A stretch of DNA of 64,000 nucleotides from Candidatus Binatia bacterium (lineage in GTDB: Bacteria; Desulfobacterota; Binatia; Bin18). The stretch's first letter is position 1, and every line of letters starts with the position of its first letter. Shown here piece after piece: positions 8,300 through 50,166 of the stretch. The stretch spans positions 4,878,927 through 4,942,926 of the forward strand of contig OY763426.1 of assembly GCA_963667495.1 (NCBI GenBank), in the 5' to 3' direction. The notes below the pieces were generated by a model. It did not search any database. It saw only the letters and a program-made list of their open reading frames with translations, and was not told the origin of the DNA. The translations under genes were made by a program, and so were the position numbers.

Positions 8300-10192
8300 T
8301 TACTCTTGAGGAGAAGCCACTGGCATCGCGCTCAGACGGTCACGAGTCTGTTTGGCCATGTCCGTCTTACCAGTCTTTTCATACAGCCGAGCGAGGTGTT
8401 CAAGCGTCTCGCGGGTCATCGAGCTGTTCGCGGGCAGGGCCTTCTCTTGGATCTGGACCGCTCGCTCTGTGAGCGACACGGCCGCTTCATTTTTTCCTTG
8501 CTCGGCATAGAACGTCGCCTGGGTGCGGAGATTCAGTGCGACGTTCGGATGATCCGCACCAAGCGACGCTTCCATAACGGAAGCAGCCTGCTCGTATATG
8601 GGTAAGAACGTCGCATAATCCTTGGTGTCCTGGAGGAGGTCGGCGATGCCGCTCAGTGTCGTGGCCAGATTATTCAGACTGACCGCAATATCACGCTGCC
8701 CAGGCTCCAACGCCTTGGTCTCAACCGCCAGAGCTTCTTCGTAATACAGCTGAGATGCAGTGAGGTCCCCGGCATCTTTCAGGAACAGCGCAAACTGATT
8801 CAGGCTCGTAGCAATATTCGGATGATCCTCACCCAGCGCGGTCTTCATGACCTGTACGGACCGTTCAAACAGCGGCCGGGCGGTCTCAAAGTTGCCGTTC
8901 TGATGGTGCAGAGAAGCCAGGTTATTCAGACTGACCGCAACATTGGGATGAACGCTGCCGTAGACCGTCTCGGTAATCTGAAGCGCCCGCTCGTACAAAG
9001 GCAACGGGCGGACGCTATCCCCTCCCTCGCGCAGGGCCAAGGCCATATTGTTCAGATTCATGGCCACAACCGGGTGGTCTTTGCCCAGCGCTTGTTCGTT
9101 GATCGCAATCACGCGCTCATAGACCGCTGCGGCCTCAGCGTAGTTCCGGACCTGGTACAAGAGAGAGGCCAGGTTGTTCAGGCTAGTCCCGACGTCAGGA
9201 TGCGTCAGACCATAGGCAGTGGTATAGATCTCGGCAGCCCGCTCAAACATGGGCCGTGCTGTGGCAAATTCTCCTATTTGATATAACGCCGATCCGAGAT
9301 TGTTGAGACTCGCAGCCACATCGGGATGTGACGGGCCAAGCGCAGCCTCTCGGATGTCGAGCGCACGTTGCTGCAATGCCCGTGCCTCGGCATAGTCCCC
9401 CATTTCCTTCAAGAGTAGACCCAACCGAGTCAGGTCGTCAGCTACAACAGGGTGCCGAGCACCGTGCGTGCTCTCATGGATAGAGAGCGCACTCTGGAGC
9501 AAGGTTCGCGCACCGTTATAATTCTTCGTCGCCATAAAAAGCTCGCCCAGATTAATCATGCTGAGGGCGACAGCTGGATGGTCACCACCCAGTTGCTGTT
9601 GGTGGATCGCCAACGCCCGTTCAAAAAGCGGACGGGCTTTCTCGTATTGCCTTTGCTCTTTGTACAGGATTGCCAGGTTGCCGACGCTCACGGCAACCGC
9701 GGCATGCGACTGCCCATAGGCGGCCTCTGTAATGCTCAGGGCCCGCTCGAACAGCGGACGGGCAGCCTCAAACTGCTGCTGGTCCTGGAGCACCAGGGCG
9801 AGATTGCTCAGACTGCGGACAATGCCGGGATGATCGCTCCCCAGTTCCTTCTCATCAATGCCCAGCGCCCGTTCGAAGAGCTGACGAGCTTCCGTGTATT
9901 GACGAGTCTGCTGAAGGAGGAGGGCGAGGTTATTGAGGCTTTGAGAGACGAGCGGATGATCGGGGCCGGCAACCTTTTCCGTCTGCTCAAGGAGCTCGCG
10001 CGCAACGGGGACGGCGGCCTGAAATTTTCCAGCCGCGTGTAAACGTCCGGCCTCTTCGGCTAATTGCTTGAGGCGGGTACCCGGCGCTTCGTCCGTACCA
10101 AAAGCAAACGGCGCAAAACAGAGTACGGCAACGGAAACGGCGACGCTGAGGATTCGGCTGGGACTATTCACTACAGGTGAGAGCCGAGACAT
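8300..10192 (-). CDS. Secreted tetratricopeptide-repeat protein (about 14 TPR units)
   Basis: Signal peptide MSRLSP...CFAPFAFG. Repeats of the form SLNNLAxLYxxxGxYxxAxPLxERALxIxExxLGxDHPxVA (TPR_10/12-like). Confidence 0.8.
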   Translation of the reverse strand: MSRLSPVVNSPSRILSVAVSVAVLCFAPFAFGTDEAPGTRLKQLAEEAGRLHAAGKFQAAVPVARELLEQTEKVAGPDHPLVSQSLNNLALLLQQTRQYTEARQLFERALGIDEKELGSDHPGIVRSLSNLALVLQDQQQFEAARPLFERALSITEAAYGQSHAAVAVSVGNLAILYKEQRQYEKARPLFERALAIHQQQLGGDHPAVALSMINLGELFMATKNYNGARTLLQSALSIHESTHGARHPVVADDLTRLGLLLKEMGDYAEARALQQRALDIREAALGPSHPDVAASLNNLGSALYQIGEFATARPMFERAAEIYTTAYGLTHPDVGTSLNNLASLLYQVRNYAEAAAVYERVIAINEQALGKDHPVVAMNLNNMALALREGGDSVRPLPLYERALQITETVYGSVHPNVAVSLNNLASLHHQNGNFETARPLFERSVQVMKTALGEDHPNIATSLNQFALFLKDAGDLTASQLYYEEALAVETKALEPGQRDIAVSLNNLATTLSGIADLLQDTKDYATFLPIYEQAASVMEASLGADHPNVALNLRTQATFYAEQGKNEAAVSLTERAVQIQEKALPANSSMTRETLEHLARLYEKTGKTDMAKQTRDRLSAMPVASPQE

Positions 10193-36130: not shown

Positions 36131-37684
36131 TCACGTCCGGGCTTTCACCTCATACGGCATCTGCTTGAAGGTGACGCCAATCCTTTCCAAAGTCGCAGAG
36201 GCCAAGCGTGACTGTTCGCCATAGACCGTCAGCGGACCGTTGAAGCGCGCATGCTTGCGCTCAATCTCCTCCCGAATCATAGCAAGTGTGGCCCGCGTCA
36301 GCACATTACCACCATTCGGTCGCCTGTCGCCCAGGATGCCATTGTACAGCAGCGCATAGGCGTGGCTACCGTGCAGACCCAGGAAAGGTGAATCCCCACC
36401 TCCGTTCCACGGATGCCCGGTCTCGCTGAACCAGACATGGGCAGCCAGCACCGGAAAGCGGATGTCCGCTCGAATCTGCCCCGCCTCATCAAACACTGGT
36501 GGCCCGAGCCGGTAGAAACGAAACCCGCCCCCGCCCTGCCAACCCACACTTTTTGAGATGCCGCCCTGTTCGCCGTCAATAACCTTGCGCAAGCGGGGCA
36601 CGCAATGCGTCACTGCGTGCTCGCCCATCTCAATACCGATATAGCGCCGGCCCATCTTGTGGGCTACTGCCGCCGTGGTGCCGGAGCCGAGGAAGGAGTC
36701 GAGCACCAAGTCGCCGGGGTTGGTCGCTGCCTCAAAGATATATTCAATAAGACCTTCAGGCTTAGGAAAGGCGAATTTGTTCTGCAAGCCGAATAGCTCC
36801 ATACTTTGATACGTTCCGTGCTGCGTATAATGTCTCTCGATTATGGTTTGCGGCTTGCGTTTCCTTTCTTCGCCTCCCTCATCTTTGAGGTATTGCTTGT
36901 AAGAAACGACCGTTTTCCCTTTTCTTTTGGAAATCACCAACTCCCCGTCTACAAGCGCCCGATGGGAACGTTCTTTTGACCATTGCCACTGCTTTTCCGG
37001 CCAAATCTCTTCGCCGTTCTCAAGTGTAATCGGGTATCTAAGATTCGGACGATCATCCATGCTCGTAGTTGCCAACGGCTGCAAACGATACGGCCCTCTC
37101 TCCGCGAATTTTTCATCCTGATATTTGTAATACTTTCTCACGACATCGGGATCAGGAGGCAAGAACATCTCGGGGAATTTGCTCATGTCTTTTGTGTAAC
37201 AGAGGACTTCTTCGTGTAGGCCCACAAACCACTTCGCTTTGGCACCGCCACCGTAGCTTTTCTTCCAAATGAATGTGGTCAAGAAGTTTGACCTTCCGAA
37301 CACCTCGTCCATGATGACCTTGAGGTAGTGGGCTTCATTGTCGTCAATCGACACCCAGATTGACCCGTCTTCGGCCAGCAAGTCACGCAGGAGTTCGAGG
37401 CGCGGCCACATCATCGCCAGCCATTGTGTATGTTCGAGATTGTCGTCGTAATGCTCGAAGGCTGAGTGCGTGTTATACGGCGGGTCAATATAGATGCACT
37501 TCACCCGTCCGGCGTAGAACGGCAGCAACGCCTTGAGCGCTTCCAGGTTGTCACCCTGAATCAGCATGTTGCCCGTGTCCGGCTCCCCTGCCGACAGGTC
37601 AGGCGCTTCTTCCAACAGCCGATACGGCACGCGAGAGGCGGTGCGGAGGTCTTCGTCTCGGGTGAGCCAGTGGAGGATGGGCAT
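36131..37684 (-). CDS. mod: Type III R-M system DNA methyltransferase (Mod, N6-adenine)
   Basis: DPPY motif (CIYIDPPYNT). SAM-binding motif I region (the FxGSGTT-type motif) is present (VLDSFLGSGTTAAVAHKMG). The ATG overlaps the stop of the upstream pentapeptide-repeat gene. Confidence 0.85.
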   Translation of the reverse strand: MPILHWLTRDEDLRTASRVPYRLLEEAPDLSAGEPDTGNMLIQGDNLEALKALLPFYAGRVKCIYIDPPYNTHSAFEHYDDNLEHTQWLAMMWPRLELLRDLLAEDGSIWVSIDDNEAHYLKVIMDEVFGRSNFLTTFIWKKSYGGGAKAKWFVGLHEEVLCYTKDMSKFPEMFLPPDPDVVRKYYKYQDEKFAERGPYRLQPLATTSMDDRPNLRYPITLENGEEIWPEKQWQWSKERSHRALVDGELVISKRKGKTVVSYKQYLKDEGGEERKRKPQTIIERHYTQHGTYQSMELFGLQNKFAFPKPEGLIEYIFEAATNPGDLVLDSFLGSGTTAAVAHKMGRRYIGIEMGEHAVTHCVPRLRKVIDGEQGGISKSVGWQGGGGFRFYRLGPPVFDEAGQIRADIRFPVLAAHVWFSETGHPWNGGGDSPFLGLHGSHAYALLYNGILGDRRPNGGNVLTRATLAMIREEIERKHARFNGPLTVYGEQSRLASATLERIGVTFKQMPYEVKART

Positions 37685-39048
37685 CAGTTATCGCTCTCCT
37701 CGGGAACCTCTGACATGGCTTCGTTGTACTCGGCAATCCACTGTTCGGCTTCTTCGGCGGTGTAGGTTCCGGTAATGGCCCTACTATTTCCTGGCAGTTC
37801 ATTACTGGCTGGCTGGTCAATGTTCGGTGTCAGCCTTTCTCGAAACTGTTTTACTGCTCCATGGGGCAAACCTTCGACAAGGGAATCCAAGTGTCCTTGA
37901 CTCAGTCCGCCGGCGAAAATCGCTCCACTCAGATCGCTCTCTTTACCAATCTTCTCATTTATACGGTTTTCAAATGAATAGAAAATTTCCCTTTGGCTGG
38001 TGACCCCTTGTAGCTGGACTTCCCCAAGCGTAGCCGCTTGCAACTCTACTCCGGTAAGATCAGCCCCTTGAAATTGTGCCCCGCTAAGATGAGAGCCTTG
38101 CATCCGTGCATCACCAAGCATAGCTCCTTGGAACTGTGCAAAATGGAGAAGGGACCCTTGAAAATTTGCACCGGCAAGAAAGGCTCCCTGGAAACGTGCT
38201 TCGTTGAGAATAGCTCCTTGCAAATGCACCTCGTGGAGACTCGCCCCTTGGAAGTATGATCCACGGAGGTAAGCCACTTGTAATTGTGTCTCGTAGAGGC
38301 GAGATCTCTGCAACTGAGCCCCATCAAGGTCGGCTCCTGCCATCAGAGCCCATCTAAGATTAGCACTCTGTAGATATGCCTTGATTAGGTTGGCCTTTTC
38401 TAAACGCGCTCTCGGAAGATTAGCTCCATTCAGCCAGCTCTCCTGCAAATTGACATGAAGTCTGTTGAAGACTTCGTGCTCCTGTACGAACAGCAGGGTC
38501 AGCAGGCTTTGAATTTCCTCCGAAGGTTTCGACTTATACTTTTCTCTGTATTTGCTTTCACCCGTTGTCTGGCGGATATGGGCACAGAGAATATCCAGTA
38601 CGGTCTGACGTAGCTCTTTCGTATCTTCCGCCAGGTGGAACAGTTCGTAAGCCCCACCCAAACGTACAGAATCCGACTCATGCCCCAAGTGCTCAATGGC
38701 GTTTTTCAGGCGTTCCTGCCTCTGCCCCTGTTCGGTGTTCTGGTTAGCTTTCGCCTGTTCCTCCGCCGCGTTTTCCATGGCTTTGGCGCGTTTATTAGCA
38801 ATGACAGCCTGAATGGCGAGAATGACGCCACCCATGCTAATCCCCAGAAATTTTAGAGCCTCGTTTTTTTCGGATGCCCCTAAAATCTGAACAACATATT
38901 TCTCAGCACTTTCGCAGGACATGACCAACACAAAAGCGCTCAGCAATACGACAAGCACAATGCCGGAAAGGCCGATCAGAACGGTTGAAACCGGGTTCGT
39001 CTTGAACGCTGGGCCAAGACGACTCAGTAGACTTGAGAGAAGACTCAT
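37684..39048 (-). CDS. Membrane-anchored pentapeptide-repeat protein (paralog 1)
   Basis: Two N-terminal TM helices, a HEAT-like helical region, about 20 consecutive pentapeptide repeats (ANLxxAxLxxAxLxGAxL...), and an acidic C-tail ITGTYTAEEAEQWIAEYNEAMSEVPEESDN. Start at MSLLSSLL chosen by alignment with paralog 2 and the ATGA overlap with the upstream gene. Confidence 0.7.
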   Translation of the reverse strand: MSLLSSLLSRLGPAFKTNPVSTVLIGLSGIVLVVLLSAFVLVMSCESAEKYVVQILGASEKNEALKFLGISMGGVILAIQAVIANKRAKAMENAAEEQAKANQNTEQGQRQERLKNAIEHLGHESDSVRLGGAYELFHLAEDTKELRQTVLDILCAHIRQTTGESKYREKYKSKPSEEIQSLLTLLFVQEHEVFNRLHVNLQESWLNGANLPRARLEKANLIKAYLQSANLRWALMAGADLDGAQLQRSRLYETQLQVAYLRGSYFQGASLHEVHLQGAILNEARFQGAFLAGANFQGSLLHFAQFQGAMLGDARMQGSHLSGAQFQGADLTGVELQAATLGEVQLQGVTSQREIFYSFENRINEKIGKESDLSGAIFAGGLSQGHLDSLVEGLPHGAVKQFRERLTPNIDQPASNELPGNSRAITGTYTAEEAEQWIAEYNEAMSEVPEESDN

Positions 39049-39851
39049 CGTTTCACAACCTGCCTCAATAATTCCAGAGCGGATTCCGACTCCAACCAGT
39101 ACTTGCCGAACAATTTCCAATACGCATAGGCTTGGTCGGCTCCTCCGTGAGAAATATAGCCTTCGATCTGGGATTTCGGCCTGGGATGTCTCTTTTTCAA
39201 CAGCTCCCTGCCGACCAAGGGCAGCTCAGCAACACAATGCTCCAGCGCCGTCCGCGCCTCCTCGTCGCGTCCAAGACGCGCAAGCGCTAACGCCTCCGAA
39301 TAGAGGGTTTCGGGAGCAATGTCGTCCCGATACTTCCGGCAATGCGTAACAATTCTCGCTGGTGCGTTTTTTTCAAACCAACATTTCGGCAGCAGATACC
39401 TCACTCCCTGATTGTCGTTTGGGTTCACAGACAAAAGCCGTCTAAAAATCTCGATGGCCTCATCGTACCTGGCGTTGTGGAGATTCCACACACCGAGGCT
39501 GTGGTAGGCTCTCAGGAAGGGACGATTCTCCAACCACAGCCACTCCAGCCTCGCGGTTTTCCAGCTAAATTTCTGGGGAAGCGCGTGCAGTCCGATACCG
39601 ACGGCGGCTTGACAACAAATGTACGCTTCCGTCTCCCTTCCCTGCTCGCGGTAGATCAGCGAGAGATGATGAATTGCGTCTATGTGACGAGGACATTCCG
39701 CTACGATGGACTGGAGCATTTTTTCCGCGACTTCATCGTGACCCTTCTCCCAAATATCCAAGGCTTGATCGAACCTTTCAAAAATCTCAGGAGTGAAGGT
39801 CGAATCCTCCTCGAAACCCCAGTTGTTTTTTTCCATCTCCACCAGTTTCAT
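39045..39851 (-). CDS. TPR-like helical-repeat protein
   Basis: 268 aa of alpha-helical repeat composition (AYHSLGVWNLHNARYDEAIEIFRRLLSVNPND). GGAGGA SD. Its stop overlaps the start of paralog 1. Confidence 0.55.
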   Translation of the reverse strand: MKLVEMEKNNWGFEEDSTFTPEIFERFDQALDIWEKGHDEVAEKMLQSIVAECPRHIDAIHHLSLIYREQGRETEAYICCQAAVGIGLHALPQKFSWKTARLEWLWLENRPFLRAYHSLGVWNLHNARYDEAIEIFRRLLSVNPNDNQGVRYLLPKCWFEKNAPARIVTHCRKYRDDIAPETLYSEALALARLGRDEEARTALEHCVAELPLVGRELLKKRHPRPKSQIEGYISHGGADQAYAYWKLFGKYWLESESALELLRQVVKR

Positions 39852-39926
39852 AATGTTTTTCCTCCAGGATACACGGGCGACAGTGGACGAGGGATTCGTT
39901 TGGGGTAAATCAGTGTCGGGGGAGCA

Positions 39927-41288
39927 TCAGTTATCAAGCTCTGTCGGAACCTCTGACATGGCTTTTTTGTATTCGGCAATCCACTGTTCGGCTTCTTCTG
40001 CGGTGTAGGCTCCCGTAATGGCGAGGCTGTTTTCTGGTAGTTCACGAATTGCCGGCTTACCAATGTGAGGCTTCAGCTTCTCTCGCAATTCTTTCGCCTT
40101 CTCATCGGGCAAACATCCGGTAAAGGAATCCAGGTCTTCCTGGCTCAACTCTCCCTCAAAAATAATCCCGTTGAGGTCACTTCCTACGCCAACTCTGTTT
40201 TTCATTAGCTCTTCAAACGGAGGTAAAAGCCCTCCGCTTACGCTGCTGATGACCCCTTGCATCTTTGTCCCGTGTAGAACGGCCCCTTGCATCTTTGCCG
40301 CGCCCAAACTAGCCCCTTGCATCTCTGCCGCGCGCAGATAAGACCCCTGTAGTCGTGCAAGGCGCAGATCGGCCCCTTGCATCTTTACTCCCGAAAGATT
40401 CGCCTCTTGTAGGCGTGCTAGGCTCAGATCAGCCCCTTGCAGGCCCGCCATGACAAGATCAGTCTCCTGTAGCTGTGCTCCACCAAGCCTAGCCCCTTGT
40501 AGACGCGTCCAGGAAAGCTCGGCTCCTTGAAGGTTCGCCTCACGAAGATTAGCCATTTGCAGATGCGTATCGCTAAGGTCAGCCTTTTGTAGAGACGACT
40601 CGCTGAGATCAACCCCTTCTAACCACGCACCGGCCATAAAGGCGTTCTCTAAACGTGCCCCCCTGAGATTGGCCATGTCCAGCCAACTCCCCTGCAAGTT
40701 AATATGCAGCCCTTTGAAGACGTTATGCTCCTGTACGAACAACAAGGTAAGTAGGCTTTGAATTTCTTCCGAAGGTTTTGACTGATACTTTTCTCTGTAT
40801 TTGCTTTCACCCGTCGTCCGTCGGATATGAGAGCATAGGATGTCCAAGACCGTCTTGCGCAACTCTTTGGTATCTTGTGCCAGATGGAACAGTTCGTAAG
40901 CTCCACCAAGGCGCACGGAGGCATTGTCATGTCCCAGGTGCTCGACGGCGTTTTTCAGGCGTTCCTGCCGCTGGCCTTGCTCGGTATTCTGGTTGGCTTT
41001 TACCTGTTCTTCCGTGGCCTTGGCTTGGGCCTTTGCGGCCTCAGCCTGCGCGTTCGCGGTGTCCTCCAGCGCTTTGGCACGTTTGTAGGACATCAAGGCT
41101 TGCAAGGCGAGCAGGACGCCGCCCATGCCGATGCCGAGAAATTTCAGGATTGAGTTTTTTGTGTGTAAGCCTAAGCGTTCCCCTACCCACCCCTCACAGG
41201 TCTCACAGAACACGACGGACGAGAAGAGCGTCACCAACATGACGAGTAGGCCGACAAGGCTGTACTGGAAAATGAGAAAAAGACTCAT
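39927..41288 (-). CDS. Membrane-anchored pentapeptide-repeat protein (paralog 2)
   Basis: Same architecture as 37684..39048. The coiled-coil (NQNTEQGQRQERLKNA.EHLGH), HEAT-like and C-tail regions are near-identical to paralog 1. Confidence 0.7.
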   Translation of the reverse strand: MSLFLIFQYSLVGLLVMLVTLFSSVVFCETCEGWVGERLGLHTKNSILKFLGIGMGGVLLALQALMSYKRAKALEDTANAQAEAAKAQAKATEEQVKANQNTEQGQRQERLKNAVEHLGHDNASVRLGGAYELFHLAQDTKELRKTVLDILCSHIRRTTGESKYREKYQSKPSEEIQSLLTLLFVQEHNVFKGLHINLQGSWLDMANLRGARLENAFMAGAWLEGVDLSESSLQKADLSDTHLQMANLREANLQGAELSWTRLQGARLGGAQLQETDLVMAGLQGADLSLARLQEANLSGVKMQGADLRLARLQGSYLRAAEMQGASLGAAKMQGAVLHGTKMQGVISSVSGGLLPPFEELMKNRVGVGSDLNGIIFEGELSQEDLDSFTGCLPDEKAKELREKLKPHIGKPAIRELPENSLAITGAYTAEEAEQWIAEYKKAMSEVPTELDN

Positions 41289-41337
41289 CGCAGAGCACTG
41301 ACTATGAACTTATCTCACAATGACCCCTCACCCTAGC

Positions 41338-42567
41338 CCTCTCCCCCCAGGGGCTCAGGTCCCGACAGTTTTGGGTAAGATGGGGAGATGGGGGATGAAG
41401 GCGAAGTCGGCGGCTAAGGGGCGGTCAAGGGCGAGCCAGCGCGTGAAGAGGCGCAAGCCGAGTTGGAGGACGCTATGGCGCCAGCGTTTGCCGTACGTCA
41501 CTTCCCGGCGCAGGCGGGGGTGGCGAATGACCTGCGTGCCCACACTACTCATCCAGGCGGAGGCCAAGGCCAAGACGAGCCACAAGCGATTGGCGTGGGC
41601 GGGCGAGCGAATCTGGGAGCGGTGCCACTGCCAGCCGCCCGATTTCAAGTCCCGAAACGCGGCCTCTTCCCACATCCGCAGCCCATACCAGTTCGCCTGC
41701 GCCTGGGACCAATTGGTCAACAACAGCCAGGGCTGGGCATAGCGGCCTTGCCAGCGGCCCACGGCCCAACACGGGCGCCAGCCCCGTTTCTTGAACGCCC
41801 GCACCGCTCCCGCCCAGCGGGCGCCAGGTTTAGGGACCAGCGTCCCAAAGGCCACCTCTCGGCCTGCCACCTGAAGGCGGACCGTCCGCTGCACCCGGAC
41901 CAAGAAGAACCAGCCCAGCGCCTCAATGGCCGCCAGCAAGTCCGGGCTACAGCCAATCCCCCGGTCGGCTTGGACCAAGACCGGGCAGCCCGCCGGGACA
42001 TGCGGCGCGACTTGGTGCAGCAAGGTGCGAATCAAGGCCACTTGGCCCATCGGCCACGCCGTCTGGCGATAACACCACCACGCCAGCGGCAGGGCGCGCC
42101 CACGATAAGCCAGACTGACGACCATGACCTTGAGATGCGCTTGGAGACTGGTCTCATCGACCAGCAGCACGAGCGGGCCGGGGGAGTGGAGCCGGCGCAG
42201 AATCCAGGCCGTCAAGCCCTGCGCCCCGACGCGCCAATCGAGCCGCGGATTGGCCACAAACCGTTGGAGGCGGCGCTCCACCGTGTCCGGCTTGCCCAAG
42301 GTGGGCAGCGCTTCGGCTACCCCGCGTTGCGAACACCGCCGGGCGACCGCTACTCCCCAGCTAAAGGCTGCCCAGACTTTGGCCTGCGACTTGCGCACCT
42401 GGGGAATCTGGCGTGCAACCGTGTCCATCCACTGATATACTGCGCGCTGTTGACTCATGGGGACCTCCCGGGACCGTGGACTTGTGAGATGGCCCACCAT
42501 GCCCCGGCCAACCCGCATGAGTCAACGCTCACAAACTGTCGGGTCTTCAGCCCCCAAGGGGGAGGGA
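41338..42567 (-). mobile_element. IS element (DDE transposase, IS4/IS5-superfamily-like), about 1.2 kb, with imperfect terminal inverted repeats
   Basis: Terminal IRs GGGGCTCAGGTCCCGACAGTTT (about 41350-41371) and CAAACTGTCGGGTCTTCAGCCCCC (about 42532-42555). The transposase ORF ends inside the IR. The flanks look like two halves of a CCCTCTCCCC...GGGGGAGGG hairpin. Confidence 0.6.
41355..42458 (-). CDS. IS-element DDE transposase
   Basis: LVLLVDETSL (D1 region), LVQADRGIG (D2), WEEAAFRDLK (the Y-x2-R-x3-E-x6-K-like block of DDE_Tnp_1). Start at MSQQRAVYQW, or possibly the upstream M at 42518. Confidence 0.7.
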   Translation of the reverse strand: MSQQRAVYQWMDTVARQIPQVRKSQAKVWAAFSWGVAVARRCSQRGVAEALPTLGKPDTVERRLQRFVANPRLDWRVGAQGLTAWILRRLHSPGPLVLLVDETSLQAHLKVMVVSLAYRGRALPLAWWCYRQTAWPMGQVALIRTLLHQVAPHVPAGCPVLVQADRGIGCSPDLLAAIEALGWFFLVRVQRTVRLQVAGREVAFGTLVPKPGARWAGAVRAFKKRGWRPCWAVGRWQGRYAQPWLLLTNWSQAQANWYGLRMWEEAAFRDLKSGGWQWHRSQIRSPAHANRLWLVLALASAWMSSVGTQVIRHPRLRREVTYGKRWRHSVLQLGLRLFTRWLALDRPLAADFAFIPHLPILPKTVGT

Positions 42568-44239: not shown

Positions 44240-44270
44240 GAAAAAAAAGGGCGCCCTTTTTGGACGCCCC
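44240..44270 (-). terminator. Rho-independent terminator candidate (minus strand)
   Basis: The minus-strand sequence GGCGTCC-AAAAA-GGGCGCC forms a 7 bp stem with one G-U pair and is followed by T8. Located 23 nt after the amidohydrolase stop at 44293. Confidence 0.5.
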
Positions 44271-44292: not shown

Positions 44293-45396
44293 TTAGTCCA
44301 GGTTATACAGCTCGGCCACGTTGTCGTGAAGAATCCAGTTCTTCTCTTCTTCGGTGAGGTGGGCGGTGTGCTTTTCGAGTATTTCCTGCGACCACGGCCA
44401 GGTCGAGTCGCTGTGCGGGAAGTCGTTGGCCCACATCAGACGGCGCGGGTTGCACATATCTTTCATGCGGAACGCCACCCAGTCGTCCTGAAAGGTGGTG
44501 TAGATATGTTCGCTGAAATACTCGCTCGGCATCTTTGACAGTTCCTGGCCGGGTTTCAGCCAGTAGCGGTGCCGGTCGTAGGCATGATCCATGCGGTACA
44601 TATAGTGTGGCACCCAGCCGGCATCTGCTTCGACACACACGATTTTCAGTTTGGGGTTACGTTCAAACACGCCGCCCAGGATAAACGTGCCCATCAGGTC
44701 CTGGTTGCCCCGAATAATGGACAGGAAGCCGTTCAGCTTCGGTCCGCGCGGAGAGGAGCCGACCACATCGCTCCGGCTGGTGAGGATGTGAAAACTCAGC
44801 GGCATCTGCATGTCGATGGCCGCCTGCCAGAATACGTCGTAGAGCGGGTCGTCATAATCGGACACCTGAGGATTGCCCGGCATCATCACTCCGCGCAGAC
44901 CCAGCTCTTTGATCTTGCGCAGGTCGGCTATGCCCTCATCAACCGAACGCATGGCGGTCTGGCCCAGGCCGATCAGGCGGTCCGGATGGGCGGAGCAGTA
45001 TTCCGCGATCCATTCGTTATAAGCGTCAAAGCAGGCTTTTTTATAGTCGAAGTCGGAGTGATTACACAGCAGCATGCCAACAGTGGGATAGATAACCTCG
45101 GCGGCAACGCCGTCCCGGTCCTGGTCGGCCAGACGCGCTTCCGGGTCCCAGCCGCCACGGTGCAGGTCCTCAAACTTGGCACCGAACATAGCGAGGTCTT
45201 CGGCCTTCTGCCCGGCAGCGGCAACCAGACCCATGGGGACCGGCTGCTTCATGCCACTGATAACGAATAGATCACCCTTCTTCTCGTCGTGGATCATGTG
45301 CGGCGCGGTATCTTTATACTTCTTGTCAATACGATCCACATAGGTGCCCGGTGGTTCGGTGATATGCGAATCAGAAGAGATAATGGGTTTGAGCAT
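44293..45396 (-). CDS. Amidohydrolase-2 family protein (PF04909-like, ACMSD/metal-dependent hydrolase)
   Basis: N-terminal IISSDSHITEP (metal-binding His pair region), HIL...H...D pattern, about 367 aa TIM-barrel hydrolase. Confidence 0.8.
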   Translation of the reverse strand: MLKPIISSDSHITEPPGTYVDRIDKKYKDTAPHMIHDEKKGDLFVISGMKQPVPMGLVAAAGQKAEDLAMFGAKFEDLHRGGWDPEARLADQDRDGVAAEVIYPTVGMLLCNHSDFDYKKACFDAYNEWIAEYCSAHPDRLIGLGQTAMRSVDEGIADLRKIKELGLRGVMMPGNPQVSDYDDPLYDVFWQAAIDMQMPLSFHILTSRSDVVGSSPRGPKLNGFLSIIRGNQDLMGTFILGGVFERNPKLKIVCVEADAGWVPHYMYRMDHAYDRHRYWLKPGQELSKMPSEYFSEHIYTTFQDDWVAFRMKDMCNPRRLMWANDFPHSDSTWPWSQEILEKHTAHLTEEEKNWILHDNVAELYNLD

Positions 45397-45422: not shown

Positions 45423-46541
45423 TTATTTTGCCGAGAACAACGTCTCCTCGGTCGGCGTTGCTTTGTGCGGATTGAAATACGGAATCACGTACTGTCCGAT
45501 CCGATCAATCGAGCGCATGATGTTCTTGTGCGGAATCCGACCGGCCTGCTTGAAGAAAATCACCTGGTCCAGCCCGGCCTGATCAAAGGTTTCGAGCTTG
45601 CGGTTGACCTCATCCGGGTTGCCGACCGTGACCATGGGGTGCTCTTTGATCTGCGCGTCGCTCAAATCGTTGGCATCCGCGTCCAGGTCGAACAGGCTGC
45701 GCAGATATTCATACGAGTACAGATTATTCTTGACCATCAGGGGCTCGAATAACTTGGCCACGTTGTGCAGAAACCAGCGCGCCCCGGCGATCCCGATCGT
45801 CTCTTCCTCTTTGCTCTCGGCCACATGACAGATGGCCACCCCGGCAAACCGCTCGTTAATCACCTGCGACACCACGTCGCTACGGTCTTTGCACTTCTCA
45901 CGATAGGTGTCCATGGTCTTCTGGACCTGTTCCCAGTTCAGATTGAAGCTGAGCACGCCCAGGCCGCGGTCGGCCGCCATCTCATAGCTGTCCGGTGCCA
46001 CGCAGGCCATCCACATCGGCGGGTGCGGCTCTTGAATAGGTTTGGGTACGACCCGCCTGGGCGGGACCTGAATCGTTTTGCCGTTGTATTCCAGGATTTC
46101 TTCAGTCCAGGCCTTCACGATCACGTCAAGGGCCTCACGCACCTCCTCACGCGTCCGATCATAATCAACCCCAAAGCCGTCCAGCTCCTGGGCCGTGGTT
46201 GACCGGCCCGTGCCCAGGTCCATCCGCCCATTGCTCAGAATGTCGAGCACCGCGGCCTGTTCCGCCACCTTGATGGGATGATTGAAGCGGTGCGGCAGGA
46301 GGCGTACACCGTGGGCGATGCGGATGTTCTTGGTGCGCTGCGAGACCGCACCGTAGAACACTTCGGGGGCCGGGCTGTGGGAGTATTCCTCCAGAAAATG
46401 GTGCTCAACCTCCCACACATAGTCAAAGCCAATCTGGTCGGCCCGTTCTATCTGGGCCAGGGCTTCGTGGTAGACATTGTACTCACTCAGCTTGTTCCAC
46501 GGGCGGGGCGTTTCCATTTCGTATAAAAGACCGAATTGCAT
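45423..46541 (-). CDS. Luciferase-like monooxygenase (LLM class flavin-dependent oxidoreductase)
   Basis: MQFGLLYE...ADQIGFDYVWEVEHHF...LDILSNGRMDLGTGRS LLM blocks. Confidence 0.8.
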   Translation of the reverse strand: MQFGLLYEMETPRPWNKLSEYNVYHEALAQIERADQIGFDYVWEVEHHFLEEYSHSPAPEVFYGAVSQRTKNIRIAHGVRLLPHRFNHPIKVAEQAAVLDILSNGRMDLGTGRSTTAQELDGFGVDYDRTREEVREALDVIVKAWTEEILEYNGKTIQVPPRRVVPKPIQEPHPPMWMACVAPDSYEMAADRGLGVLSFNLNWEQVQKTMDTYREKCKDRSDVVSQVINERFAGVAICHVAESKEEETIGIAGARWFLHNVAKLFEPLMVKNNLYSYEYLRSLFDLDADANDLSDAQIKEHPMVTVGNPDEVNRKLETFDQAGLDQVIFFKQAGRIPHKNIMRSIDRIGQYVIPYFNPHKATPTEETLFSAK

Positions 46542-46600: not shown

Positions 46601-47755
46601 TCAGGACAATCCATACACGCCGGCCACATTCTCACCTAAGACTTTACGCCTGCTCTCTTCAGACAGCGGCGCCACCATATTCGTCAGGTCTTTAATATAG
46701 TCGCAGGTATGATCGTCGTGAGGAAAATCGCTCGCCCAGAAAAATTTGTCCGCGCCGATATACTCGATCAGGTAGGGCAGAGCGCGTTCATCCGGGTCGG
46801 CCGATATCCAACACTGACGCTGGAAGTAGTAGCTCGGGACTTCTTTGAGCGGGACACTTCGGCCGAGCGCGGTCTTATACGCCGCGTCCATGCGATCAAG
46901 CATATGTCCGATCCAGCCCGCCCCGGATTCGAGCACGACAACTTTTACGCTGGGGAAACGGTCGAACAGGCCGTATTGGAACAGCCCCAAAAAGGCCTGT
47001 TGGGGACCCTGGCCGCCCAGCATATCCACCCACCATTCGCCCCATTTATACATCTCCCGAAACCGCTGGTAGACGCGCCGTTTGGGCGGTTCGGCCACGG
47101 GATGAATCCCGATCGGGACCCCCAGGTCCTGTGCCGTGGCCCAGAACGGATCGTGGTCCGTATGCGCGTGGGCCTTGTCGGTCAGCGTATAGGGTGAGAT
47201 AAAAGCGCCCTTGGCCCCGGCTTTGACGGCGCGCTCCAGTTCCTGGGCCGCGGCTTCACCAGAAGTGAGACAGATGTGGGCAATCGGAATCAGCCGGCCA
47301 CCGGAGTCGGAACAAAAATCGACGATCCAGCGATTATAGGCGCGGGTATACGCCTGGGCCAGATCGTGCTCGGTGACTTCGGCTTCCCACTCCAGACAGA
47401 TCGTCGGATAGATCAGCGCCTTGGTCAGGTTTTCCTGATCGAGCAGGATCAGACGTTCCTGGGGATCGTTTCCCCCAAAGGGGACACCTTTGGTGTAACC
47501 CTGTTGCTTGATGCCACTACGCTCTTCAAACGTACTGCCCATGCTGGTGCCACGGGCCAGGATTTCCGCGTCAAAATAGCGCGAGCGTTGGCCGTTCAAT
47601 TCCAGATGGTCGAGTCCGTCCGGGCCGGGCCGAATCCGAATGGCCCGATCACGATATACCGGATCGATATACCGTTCCCACAGATCGGCGGGTTCGTTGA
47701 TATGGCCATCGGCATCAATGGCCCCTGCATACGGTAGCCGTGAGGTTTGAAACAC
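46601..47755 (-). CDS. Amidohydrolase-2 family protein
   Basis: IDADGHINEP N-terminal motif. Paralogous in layout to 44293..45396. Confidence 0.8.
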   Translation of the reverse strand: MFQTSRLPYAGAIDADGHINEPADLWERYIDPVYRDRAIRIRPGPDGLDHLELNGQRSRYFDAEILARGTSMGSTFEERSGIKQQGYTKGVPFGGNDPQERLILLDQENLTKALIYPTICLEWEAEVTEHDLAQAYTRAYNRWIVDFCSDSGGRLIPIAHICLTSGEAAAQELERAVKAGAKGAFISPYTLTDKAHAHTDHDPFWATAQDLGVPIGIHPVAEPPKRRVYQRFREMYKWGEWWVDMLGGQGPQQAFLGLFQYGLFDRFPSVKVVVLESGAGWIGHMLDRMDAAYKTALGRSVPLKEVPSYYFQRQCWISADPDERALPYLIEYIGADKFFWASDFPHDDHTCDYIKDLTNMVAPLSEESRRKVLGENVAGVYGLS

Positions 47756-47840: not shown

Positions 47841-48383
47841 TCAATCCGAAGCAGGGCCGGTGTTTTGAAAAAAGTCCAGCACCTGTGCTACCAGTTCGTC
47901 CGCCCGCGTGTCCAACTCGTCTTCCGTCAGATTGGCGATGGGGTGGGCAGTCACCAGAAACCGATAGTCCTGGACCCCCCAACTGGTTGCCATGGCGCGA
48001 CCAGTTGCAATAAAGGGTGTGGTCACGATAGACGCAGTGGGAATACCGGCGCGCTCCAATTTCAGGCCGTCGAGCACACTGCTCGAACTGCACGACCCTC
48101 AATCACCCACGCCGGCCAGAACAATATCGACCTGTTGCTGAAACAGCGCAATCGCCTCCTGGCTGACGGCGTGGCCGGATGACAGCTTGCGATTCACGGA
48201 CACCAAGCGCATGTCGTGTTGCTGCTCCAGGCGCTCGGCCACCTTGCACAGCAATTCCTTGGAATTGAACTTGGTATTTTCGACCAGTCCGACTCGGAGC
48301 CCCCGGAACGCGCCGGGCCGCGGCGCATACGCAAATTCCTGCGTTTCCAAGAGGAGAGTCGGATCAAAAACCGTACGACGCAT
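47841..48383 (-). CDS. UGSC-family selenoprotein (in-frame TGA at 48099..48101 read as selenocysteine)
   Basis: ORFs 48099..48383 and 47841..48077 are in the same frame and are separated only by TGA plus 7 sense codons. The joined product reads ...DIVLAGVGD-U-GSCSSSSVLDGLKLE... The hairpin UCGAGCA-GUG-UGCUCGA begins about 12 nt 3' of the UGA, which is SECIS-like. Confidence 0.6.
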
Positions 48384-48408
48384 TCGTCTTCCTCCTTTAT
48401 CGTCTCAG

Positions 48409-49443
48409 TTACACCCGTACCAATTCAGTCACGCTGCGCGTCCACTTATTCCCCCAGCCGGGTAAACACGCCGACCAGCTCCCGCCTTGGGCCCCCGCGC
48501 AGACAATCAGCACATCATCTGGGTCACGCATCACATAGCGCCAGGTTGTTTCATCTTCGGGACTAATCTCGCCCGGCAGCCGCCCAGCCCGTTTGAAATC
48601 GGCCACGCTCCGCCGCGCCTGTTGAATCACACCCTCCTGGACCTGCCGCCGGCTCCAACCGCTGTGTTTTATGATTGCGGCGTGCTCGCCGGCGAGCACC
48701 AGCAGGCTTTGATTAAACCCATACACGTTCGGTGAGGCGAGATTACACACGGCATCCGCAAATTCCAGCAACAGGGGTTCGGGCGTACTGGCAAGCTGGT
48801 TATACACCCCCATGAGGGTATTGGAGGCATACAACGTCACCGTACTGTCCTCGGGGCGAAAGCCGCGTTCAACGTGGAGCGGTTGCCAGGGATGGTTATC
48901 CTCGTTCTCGGCAAAACAGAAGGCATATTTCCCCGGTGAACCCAAGGTGGCCTTGTCCAGCAGCCCTGGCCGGGTATTGAGCACGTTGAGCATGACCAGG
49001 CGCAGCGCCCGGCCGATGGTCGCATTGGGGCGAAATCCCGGCCCAAAGGCGTTATGGGTCGCGTTGATCCCGAGCGCGGGACCAATCGGACCGTTCACGA
49101 TCAGGGTGATCGCCGACCCGCCGGTGCTGGTTGCCGGATTGTGATAGTGAAACTCGGGTCGGCACAGCCCCCGTACCGCAGCCAGCACAACGGGGAAATA
49201 CTCGGGCAAACAGCCGGCCATCACCGCGTTGATGGCCACCTTCTCAGCCGGGATGGTCACGTTGCGTTCCGCAATAGTTCCCAGACCCTCATCCGCCTCG
49301 ACCTGTCCGACCTTCAGCATCGCCCGGACCGACTCTTCGGTTGGCGGGACGAACGGCAGCCCGTCACTCCAGCCCTGCTGGTAATAGAACTCAACCCAGG
49401 CCGCGGCTTCAGCCGGGTCGGTTGGAGGTATGTGTTCGTCCAT
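48409..49443 (-). CDS. Conserved hypothetical protein (upstream neighbour of the UGSC gene)
   Basis: 344 aa. No family recognised by eye. Confidence 0.45.
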   Translation of the reverse strand: MDEHIPPTDPAEAAAWVEFYYQQGWSDGLPFVPPTEESVRAMLKVGQVEADEGLGTIAERNVTIPAEKVAINAVMAGCLPEYFPVVLAAVRGLCRPEFHYHNPATSTGGSAITLIVNGPIGPALGINATHNAFGPGFRPNATIGRALRLVMLNVLNTRPGLLDKATLGSPGKYAFCFAENEDNHPWQPLHVERGFRPEDSTVTLYASNTLMGVYNQLASTPEPLLLEFADAVCNLASPNVYGFNQSLLVLAGEHAAIIKHSGWSRRQVQEGVIQQARRSVADFKRAGRLPGEISPEDETTWRYVMRDPDDVLIVCAGAQGGSWSACLPGWGNKWTRSVTELVRV

Positions 49444-49555: not shown

Positions 49556-49807
49556 ATGAATGAGGCAAAGCTGCTCGAACGTATTACTATCAATCCGAAA
49601 ATCTTCGGCGGTAAGCCTACTGTCCGAGGACGAAGACTCGCAGTCGAGCATGTTCTTGGTATGCTGGCAGCGGGAGATACAGCCGAGACCATACTTTCAG
49701 GCTATGCTTGGCTTGAGCCGGAAGACATCCAGGCTTGCCTGCTCTATGCGCGGCAGCTTGTTGGTCATGAACGCGTCGGGCCATTCTTTGTTAAGCCCCC
49801 CGCCTGA
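49556..49807 (+). CDS. DUF433 domain protein (antitoxin-like)
   Basis: ITINPKIFGGKPTVRGRRLAVEHVLGMLAAGDTAETILSGYAWLEPEDIQACLLYA matches the DUF433 consensus. Confidence 0.65.
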   Translation: MNEAKLLERITINPKIFGGKPTVRGRRLAVEHVLGMLAAGDTAETILSGYAWLEPEDIQACLLYARQLVGHERVGPFFVKPPA

Positions 49808-50166
49808 GGCTTCTGCTTGATAGCTATGTCTGGGGCGGAGTCCGCCAGGATATAAGAACCGCTGGCCATGATGTCCCGTGGGCGGGCGAGTGGGATGAAG
49901 ACCCCGGCGATGAAGAAATTCTCAGGCGAGCTTTCCGTGACAGTCGTATCCCCGTGACCTTAGATAAGGACTTTGGCGAACTTGTTATCGTCCGCGGCCA
50001 ACGCCATGCAGGCATTCTTCGCCTCGTCAATCTCTCAGCACGTCAACAAGCAGATGTCTGCATTCAAGTCCTCACCACGCATGGTACGGATTTGGAAGCT
50101 GGAGCGATCATTACCGCCGAGCCCGGCAGATTACGCATTCGCCCGGCGTCGGCCACTTCTTCATAG
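49804..50166 (+). CDS. DUF5615 family PIN-like protein (toxin-like partner of DUF433). The start codon is non-canonical or degraded.
   Basis: Frame-continuous LLLDSYVWGGVRQDIRTAGHDVPWAGEWDEDPGDEEILRRAFRDSRIPVTLDKDFGELV... matches DUF5615. There is no in-frame ATG. A CTG overlapping the DUF433 TGA is the only candidate start. Confidence 0.45.
   Translation: MRLLLDSYVWGGVRQDIRTAGHDVPWAGEWDEDPGDEEILRRAFRDSRIPVTLDKDFGELVIVRGQRHAGILRLVNLSARQQADVCIQVLTTHGTDLEAGAIITAEPGRLRIRPASATSS

Follow-up and report, generated by a model that had tools for sequence, protein, structure and literature searches.

We analysed a window of 64,000 nucleotides (64 kb) from the genome of a Candidatus Binatia bacterium (contig OY763426.1, positions 4,878,927 to 4,942,926); "the window" denotes this whole stretch. 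Our subject is a minus-strand locus at which a gene of the UGSC family, predicted to encode selenocysteine (Sec) in its U-G-S-C motif, appears to have been split by gene calling. Two minus-strand open reading frames (ORFs), 48099..48383 and 47841..48077, were found by direct reading to have the identical frame. Between them lie a TGA (48101 to 48099) and seven sense codons, GGG TCG TGC AGT TCG AGC AGT (GSCSSSS), after which the mechanical ORF caller restarts at GTG 48077 (positions of elements of this gene are given 5′ to 3′ on the minus strand). Sequence and frame, read directly, give a single 180-codon gene at 47841..48383, interrupted by the in-frame TGA at 48099-48101. The joined translation runs ...VDIVLAGVGD*GSCSSSSVLDGLKLERAGIP..., and the peptide spanning the predicted Sec95 is ...AGVGD-U-GSCSSSSVLDGLK. 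Its Shine-Dalgarno sequence lies within the 25-nt spacer downstream of the TAA (48411-48409) of the preceding gene, which encodes a 344-aa protein, here called the partner. These two genes, partner first, open a minus-strand operon of five, in which genes for an amidohydrolase, a luciferase-like monooxygenase and a second amidohydrolase follow, with gaps of 25-85 nt between genes. The full-length UGSC product has a predicted mass of roughly 19.6 kDa.

The bare pattern of two ORFs joined by one TGA is not beyond chance, 84 such same-frame pairs being present in the window. Similarly, a perfect hairpin of at least 7 bp in the geometry of a selenocysteine insertion sequence (SECIS) follows 16 of the 2028 TGA triplets of the window (0.8%), and the stability of the 71-nt fold around the site is unremarkable (z = -0.88). 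Since this pattern is weak alone, the case rests on comparative evidence.

With U read as C, the joined product scored 143.1 bits against NCBIfam NF041046, 'UGSC family (seleno)protein' (cut-off 125), and 184.6 bits against Pfam PF24696 (cut-off 25), and the matches to both hidden Markov models (HMMs) cross the TGA junction. The strand G-V-G-D is followed, at the column conserved in the family, by U/C-G-S-C. Seventeen full-length cysteine (Cys) homologues (174-188 aa) carrying GVGDCGSCSS align without a gap over the TGA site, opposite the GVGD-U-GSC of the window gene. These matches place the window gene in the UGSC family, known since 2007. The original prediction, that an ORF caller had split a UGSC gene and that the restored product carries the U-G-S-C motif, was thus confirmed, with all its coordinates correct. 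For annotation, two 'hypothetical' ORFs become one predicted UGSC selenoprotein gene. The same mis-call is found in a public assembly, where the orthologue of a close relative (P0002, 86% identical) is a 104-aa fragment ending in GVGD.

Conservation of the TGA was examined in a scan of one genome per species, which returned 364 UGSC loci, of which the best 80 were examined. The best match among them (L013) is 96% identical, and these loci point to a Candidatus Binatia-like organism as the source of the window. Complete Binatia chromosomes with the orthologue include OZ243979.1, OZ244620.1, OY761159.2, OZ246888.1 and OY729511.1. Counting the window and 81 loci, the Sec column holds TGA in 80/82 and TGC in the remaining two, both from Alphaproteobacteria. 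The loci are spread over Binatia, Methylomirabilota/Rokubacteria, Burkholderiales, Alphaproteobacteria, SAR324 and Lambdaproteobacteria. An in-frame stop was also present at this column in nearly all of 68 UGSC copies from metagenomes, and more distant Cys forms have TGC or TGT there. Alignment to family members therefore gave Cys (TGC/TGT) or TGA at this position, as expected from the original prediction.

The codons that follow the TGA behave as protein-coding sequence. Among the seven post-TGA codons the amino acids are kept and the codons vary (Gly96 GGG/GGC/GGA; Ser97 TCG/TCA/TCC/TCT; Cys98 TGC/TGT), and Ser99 alternates between AGY and TCG codons among Sec genes. Ratios of nonsynonymous to synonymous substitution rates (dN/dS) between the window gene and its Binatia orthologues L001-L012 were 0.05-0.22 for the part 3′ of the TGA and 0.05-0.23 for the part 5′ of it. 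These data indicate that the region 3′ of the TGA is translated in frame, under purifying selection equal on both sides. TGA is not a sense codon in general here, since the gene's own terminator is also TGA. An in-frame UGA aligned with Cys and followed by conserved coding sequence, the criterion for a bacterial selenoprotein gene, was therefore found at this locus.

Downstream of the UGA the mRNA can form a 17-nt hairpin with a perfect stem, UCGAGCA (48086-48080) and UGCUCGA (48076-48070) enclosing the loop GUG (48079-48077), which begins 12 nt after the UGA. The consensus published for the bacterial SECIS has an upper stem of 4-16 bp, a UGA-to-loop distance of 16-37 nt and a minimum free energy of -7.5 kcal/mol or lower (PMC13188914, Fig. 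2). With its loop GUG, 7-bp stem, UGA-to-loop distance of 19 nt and core energy of -8.4 kcal/mol, the window hairpin agrees with the published description on all four counts. Across 35 distinct Sec-type sequences the seven pairs of the core give 245 cells, of which 244 are paired. Both CG and GC occur at pair 21-27, pair 19-29 is GU, AU, UA or UG, and the apical loop is G-U-N in every sequence compared. The observed covariation score was reached by 0/500 column shuffles. Only this 7-bp core is claimed: RNAfold also drew a lower helix GGGUCG/CGGCCU in the window, which was rejected because it contains an unpaired C-A in the close relative L001 and because its pairs 14-34 and 15-33 are formed in merely 12/35 and 17/35 sequences.

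The nucleotides of the hairpin are also constrained beyond what the peptide asks for. In 80 Sec genes, normalised synonymous entropy was 0-0.04 at codons 100 and 102-105, compared with a mean of 0.66 elsewhere (Mann-Whitney p=1.9e-4), and the most constrained 7-codon window of the gene begins at codon 100. The stem codons were invariant or nearly so (TCG 79/79, AGT 80/80, GTG 73/73, CTC 79/80, GAC 80/80), whereas flanking codons vary freely. Structural conservation as a SECIS was therefore found in covariation and in synonymous-site constraint, and in the loss of the structure from Cys forms that is described below. We conclude that the 17-nt hairpin 12 nt downstream of the UGA is, as judged by its conservation, a bacterial SECIS; the SECIS-like hairpin of the original prediction thus fits the published consensus, is paired almost without exception in the Sec-type sequences compared, lies on frozen synonymous sites and is lost in distant Cys forms. 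Taken together, the family HMM matches, the pairing of Cys with TGA, and conservation both of the TGA itself and of the hairpin down to its nucleotides indicate that the gene is real.

The original prediction had also suggested that the 344-aa neighbour might be the partner of the UGSC protein, and this suggestion gained strong support. A homologue of the partner lies on the UGSC strand in 79/82 UGSC-selected loci, and in 79/79 informative ones, the three exceptions being contigs cut ~100-190 nt upstream of UGSC. The two genes are at most 300 nt apart in 76/79 loci (median 56 nt) and 0.8-2.7 kb apart in the other three; the partner precedes UGSC in 70 loci and follows it in 9. In the reciprocal sample of 80 metagenome contigs selected by the partner, a same-strand UGSC gene was found in 68, that is in 68/73 informative contigs, and within 270 nt in 66. 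Seven contigs were uninformative (contig ends) and five lacked UGSC, of which only L090 has both flanks. The pairing persists in Cys-type loci, where the stop codon of one gene overlaps the start codon of the next; L084 holds two such pairs. Paralogous UGSC-partner pairs stand two or three side by side in several genomes (L048, L066, L068, L084, L137/L149).

Natural fusions link the two proteins further. Six proteins of 528-561 aa join a complete N-terminal UGSC domain, with CGSC, CGNC or CGAS, to the partner (P0157, P0167, P0216, P0240, P0218, P0265). In P0169, P0172 and P0191 (427-443 aa) the partner is preceded by only the last third of a UGSC domain, as expected if the call of a Sec-type fusion gene begins 3′ of the TGA. 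Other modules can take the place of UGSC. In P0207 (a 71-member cluster; P0296-P0308) the partner carries, in place of UGSC, a fused N-terminal AhpC/TSA-Redoxin domain whose motif is CATC. A small CxxC domain is fused at the N-terminus of the partner in P0147 (residues 28-91), and this domain exists as a separate 85-aa gene directly after the Cys-type UGSC gene in L082, L084 and L085 (39% identity, E 4e-14). Adjacency on one strand, its reciprocal and the fusions indicate that the 344-aa protein is a real partner, and that UGSC and partner are a two-gene module in either order, sometimes fused. UGSC is thus almost never found without one unnamed, highly conserved protein, and other CxxC redox domains can replace it.

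Some further features of these proteins and loci were noted. One source labels the P0207-type fusion plainly 'peroxiredoxin'; the L082 cluster also holds a thioredoxin-reductase-like gene (316 aa, CATC motif, 8518-9468); and P0141, P0142, P0145, P0149 and P0151 (709-741 aa) have a tandem duplicate of the partner domain with no Pfam match.

The partner belongs to a large family with more than 7989 matches; an exhaustive profile search gave 6123 cluster representatives, of which 1690 match at E <=1e-30. Its hosts include Binatia, Methylomirabilota, Burkholderiales, Alphaproteobacteria and SAR324. All source names are 'hypothetical protein', and no Pfam or NCBIfam match was obtained, also when 40 members were scanned at E up to 1. 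Comparison of 67 diverse members identified the conserved residues D27-G-L-P30, P34, N72-A-V-M-A-G-C78-x-P80, T107, G118-P119, G134, G136, R138-A-N140, G144-R145-A146, G168, C176, E179, W186, G194 and G317-G318.

Neighbouring genes were compared among lineages. In lineages other than Binatia the pair is flanked by genes for TctC, acyl-CoA dehydrogenase, CoA-transferase, acyl-CoA synthetase, GntR/FCD and SDR proteins. Clustering of 978 ORFs from 86 loci gave no third universal neighbour, the most frequent being TctC (20 loci), luciferase-like monooxygenase (18), Amidohydro_2 (17) and SDR (13). Since neighbours are lineage-restricted, the conserved unit is a module of two genes, which is found in organic-acid catabolic neighbourhoods of various kinds. 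The amidohydrolase/monooxygenase context is common to Binatia relatives only. The catabolic cluster described in the original prediction is therefore present, with its two Amidohydro_2 genes and its luciferase-like monooxygenase gene, but it is lineage-specific and lies outside the conserved module.

The fold of UGSC was modelled with AlphaFold2 (AF2) on the Cys orthologue P0001. The model (predicted local distance difference test, pLDDT, 84.5) is a five-stranded beta-alpha-beta sandwich, flavodoxin/Rossmann-like, in which the U/C-x-x-C motif occupies the N-terminus of helix 3, following a beta-strand. UGSC has been described as having a 'likely Trx-like fold', Trx denoting thioredoxin (PMC2398784, PMC13188914). 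The modelling does not support that assignment, since the predicted fold is flavodoxin/Rossmann-like and gave no thioredoxin-fold matches. For the partner, the AF2 model (pLDDT 80.5; predicted template modelling score 0.84) had no convincing match among solved folds. A profile search against the sequences of solved structures (PDB) gave no match below E 0.6 for either protein, and the only recurring structural leads were iron-sulfur (Fe-S) hydro-lyases.

The partner is joined to Cys/Sec-x-x-Cys modules of three different kinds, and mainly on this ground we propose thiol/selenol redox or nucleophile chemistry. UGSC would be a small flavodoxin/Rossmann-like alpha/beta domain whose U-x-x-C cycles between selenol/thiol and selenenylsulfide, the couple of Sec95 and Cys98 serving the partner as a redox-active or nucleophilic subunit. 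The partner would be the substrate-binding catalytic subunit, with Cys78 (of NAVMAGC) and Cys176 as candidate interacting residues. Such a two-subunit redox or nucleophile model, formally analogous to the selenoprotein B components GrdB and PrdB of clostridial glycine and D-proline reductase, has in our estimation a little under an even chance of being right. Given its varied catabolic neighbourhoods, the pair may act on an organic acid. Going further, the pair may be a widespread, not yet described two-subunit selenoenzyme, composed of the partner and a Sec/Cys-x-x-Cys domain, that catalyses a reduction or group transfer in the catabolism of organic acids; we put this forward tentatively, as a possibility rather less likely to be right than wrong. 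If true, it would be an analogue of the clostridial B components in largely aerobic or facultative lineages. At any rate, an orphan selenoprotein becomes a defined system of two proteins whose candidate active-site residues are Sec95 and Cys98 (UGSC) and Cys78 and Cys176 (partner). The partner gives a handle on UGSC function, and the system is open to expression, co-purification and assay.

The structural leads raise a different possibility, namely that U/C-x-x-C and the partner cysteines bind a metal or Fe-S centre and that the pair is a hydro-lyase-type enzyme. Class-I fumarate hydratases of the two-subunit type have subunits of ~280 aa and ~190 aa, a pair of similar size, and the partner has two near-universal Cys and two conserved Arg. 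Nevertheless, UGSC is swapped for a peroxiredoxin-like or small CxxC domain in some lineages, which points to dithiol redox chemistry. In addition, Sec is not a usual Fe-S ligand, and the flavodoxin-like fold of UGSC differs from that of the fumarate hydratase beta subunit. We consider a hydro-lyase distinctly unlikely.

For decoding, SelB with Sec-tRNA(Sec) would bind the hairpin as the ribosome reaches the UGA, leading to insertion of Sec95, and the final UGA (47843-47841), without such a hairpin, would end translation. In more than 11 closely related Binatia genomes the TGA and the exact SECIS are retained and the downstream region is under strong purifying selection, from which we infer SelB-dependent Sec insertion at residue 95. 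Several results weigh against the account of a UGSC selenoprotein, its partner and their chemistry given here. Within the 64-kb window, ARAGORN found no tRNA, Rfam at gathering thresholds gave no match, and a regular-expression search with SelD/SelA/SelB motifs gave spurious matches only. Neither for this protein nor, according to a 2026 review (PMC13188914), for any UGSC member has selenium been demonstrated in the protein. Five partner-selected loci show no UGSC, so some partners may function without it. As to the reductase analogy, the window protein reached 20.7 bits against PrdB TIGR04483 (cut-off 300), over residues 77-127 only, and the partner has no similarity to PrdA/GrdE and no Gly_reductase match (40 members, E up to 1). 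Since the partner is unlike PrdA/GrdE, the analogy is functional speculation. Membership in GrdB/PrdB was itself rejected, the score being far below the cut-off and the partner lacking resemblance to the pyruvoyl-forming proproteins. Two wider searches were also negative: ARAGORN found no tRNA, and thus no tRNA-Sec, in 60 related loci, and a literature search on Binatia and selenocysteine returned nothing relevant.

The failure to find tRNA-Sec and sel genes within the 64-kb window would fit a gene that is of Sec type by descent in an organism that does not insert Sec, having lost the machinery (and making a truncated product) or reading UGA as Cys or another residue. However, the joint retention of TGA, SECIS and downstream selection in the Binatia relatives is unexpected if the codon terminates, and lineages that abandoned Sec at this site switched the codon to TGC or TGT. 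Loss of Sec insertion is accordingly very unlikely in our view.

The hairpin might instead be a mere by-product of the conserved peptide S-S-(S/G)-S-V-L-D, without RNA function, given that the stem falls within a stretch coding for a conserved protein motif and the surrounding fold has no unusual stability. The Cys forms and the paralogues decide against this. In the recently converted Cys forms L075 and L079 (Alphaproteobacteria) the loop codon has changed from AGT to AGC and GAC to GAT, and the stem potential remains, a point in favour of a by-product. In the distant Cys forms L082-L085 a similar peptide is encoded via TCC/TCA, ACG/ACC and CTT/GAT, and the hairpin is absent. Cys forms with the same or a similar peptide thus use TCC/TCA, AGC/ACG/ACC, CTT/CTG and GAT, losing the G-U loop and, in the distant ones, the stem too, whereas four- and six-fold degenerate stem codons are invariant in the 80 Sec genes with their flanks free. 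Moreover, paralogous Sec copies with diverged peptides (SSWSVRD, SSWSLHD, CTLCSVHD) preserve the SECIS stem, and it is in such copies (SSWSVRD, CTLCSVHD) that the compensatory double changes sit. An RNA without function is thus a more improbable explanation still.

Finally, a true stop at the TGA, giving two small proteins (94 aa, and 78 aa from GTG 48077), a pseudogene or a sequencing error, matches the mechanical ORF call, the public calling of P0002 and the chance frequency of TGA-bridged pairs, but it is effectively refuted and so improbable as to be set aside: the TGA is shared by 80/82 independent genomes and ~68 metagenome contigs, which excludes both a sequencing error and recent pseudogene formation, the stretch of seven codons from TGA to GTG is kept as protein with synonymous turnover, and Cys homologues continue over the site, where the HMMs span the junction and dN/dS is equal on both sides. 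The best explanation overall, and a highly probable one, is a single UGSC selenoprotein gene with UGA at the Cys column and a SECIS, set in an operon and in a two-gene module with its partner.

The remaining features of the locus are collected in Table 1. The minus strand from 49443 to 44270 contains no terminator-like site other than the strong one listed, which follows directly after the last amidohydrolase gene and marks the 3′ end of the operon. Genes for an FMN-dependent dehydrogenase, a second luciferase-like monooxygenase and a nitronate monooxygenase lie nearby on the other side.

Table 1. Coordinates of the UGSC gene, its elements, its operon and related genes (window positions unless a locus is named)
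Feature	Coordinates	Strand	Basis
UGSC-family selenoprotein gene (predicted)	47841..48383	-	ATG 48383-48381; own stop TGA 47843-47841; HMMs, Cys alignment, dN/dS
Predicted selenocysteine codon UGA, residue 95 of U-G-S-C motif	48099..48101	-	TGA/Cys column in homologues
Bacterial SECIS core, 7-bp stem and loop GUG	48070..48086	-	fold energy, covariation, synonymous constraint
Shine-Dalgarno AAGGAGG	48391..48397	-	7 nt 5′ of UGSC ATG; direct read
Partner gene, 344 aa, large unnamed family	48409..49443	-	adjacency, fusions, conserved residues
Amidohydro_2 (PF04909) gene, third of operon	46601..47755	-	Pfam, gene spacing
Luciferase-like monooxygenase (PF00296) gene, fourth of operon	45423..46541	-	Pfam
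Second Amidohydro_2 gene, last of operon	44293..45396	-	Pfam
Intrinsic-terminator-like hairpin GGGGCGTCC...GGGCGCCCT, 9 bp (7 G-C), then T7	44248..44270	-	directly after last amidohydrolase gene
Paralogous UGSC-partner pairs	L048 2869-3357, 6001-6516, 12169-12516; L066 6001-6519, 9456-9941; L084 4513-5073, 8046-8579		
85-aa CxxC gene, motif A-C-E-D-C-L-V-P-K, no Pfam match	L082 6549-6809; L084 5063-5320; L085 6551-6808		

Several observations were made around the operon. A DUF433 gene (49556-49807, plus strand) is followed by a 70-aa ORF (49954-50166) resembling its usual toxin-type companion; the pair is flanked by the partner gene on one side and the FMN-dependent dehydrogenase gene on the other. 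In the close relative L001 these flanking genes abut directly, and the DUF433 pair therefore looks like a small toxin-antitoxin insertion. On the far side of the operon, two pentapeptide-repeat paralogues with hydrophobic N-termini (37684-39120 and 39927-41288, minus strand) lie beside a 517-aa DNA methyltransferase-like ORF (36131-37684) and a 387-aa transposase-like ORF (41355-42518), so that 36131-42518 resembles a mobile or defence island next to the catabolic operon. The 'DN*C' ends of the two pentapeptide-repeat genes were considered as Sec sites and rejected, being ordinary gene ends followed by other genes; among the 84 TGA-bridged ORF pairs of the window no further convincing selenoprotein gene was found.

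Two observations concern the records that were compared. In L001 (11501-13954) the amidohydrolase and luciferase-like genes after UGSC are split into pieces 100-190 aa long, and its UGSC ends in residues unlike those of the window gene, which is consistent with uncorrected frameshift errors in that public assembly. The record titles of the metagenome-assembled genomes L012, L022, L068 and L078 ('uncultured Enterobacteriaceae', 'Streptomycetaceae', 'Streptomyces sp.') look unreliable: the UGSC and partner genes of L012 and L022 group with Binatia, and those of L068 and L078 with Sec-type loci of the order UGSC then partner.

The 'UGSC-containing protein' was described by Zhang and Gladyshev in 2007/2008 (PMC1976440, PMC2398784), and with 255 Sec sequences in the Global Ocean Sampling it is among the most abundant selenoprotein families in aquatic metagenomes (PMC2398784). 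A 2026 review lists its function as uncharacterised (PMC13188914). Among cultured carriers, Hyphomonas neptunium is named in the literature. The window gene shares with the family the motif column, a single domain of ~180 aa and a SECIS directly downstream. Nothing essential sets this copy apart from other UGSC genes; its setting is a Binatia-like genome and an amidohydrolase/luciferase-like monooxygenase operon. What is added here is quantitative support for a family-specific SECIS, a fold assignment unlike the one guessed in the literature, and a defined partner family with alternative CxxC fusions.

Compared with the E. coli fdhF-type SECIS and the bSECISearch consensus, the window hairpin is likewise an in-coding stem-loop directly 3′ of the UGA with a small loop starting in G-U, but its loop has 3 nt and its core lacks the bulged U. 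Unlike the fdhF-type element, its sequence is family-specific and nearly nucleotide-identical across lineages. For the fusions, a precedent is the 'UGSC/Unknown_1' protein reported from the Global Ocean Sampling in 2008 (PMC2398784, Fig. S1A). Like the fusions found here, it joins UGSC to a conserved domain of unknown function, for which the partner family is a candidate. Beyond that report, our data provide near-universal adjacency of the unfused genes, 6123 representatives of the partner and the alternative CxxC fusions.

A formal parallel is selenoprotein B of the glycine/sarcosine/betaine and D-proline reductases (GrdB TIGR01917, PrdB TIGR04483, TIGR01918; Pfam GRDB). In the strand-Sec-helix region UGSC members gave weak recurring matches to these models (GrdB TIGR01917 4.9e-5, PrdB 2.3e-4 and 2.4e-3, TIGR01918 5.6e-3), every one of them far below the family cut-offs. 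Like UGSC, selenoprotein B carries U-x-x-C and acts with a larger subunit that is encoded by a gene of its own, and in both Sec is probably the nucleophile that then forms a selenenylsulfide with a nearby Cys. UGSC differs in being much smaller, and in having largely aerobic or facultative hosts rather than amino-acid-fermenting clostridia.

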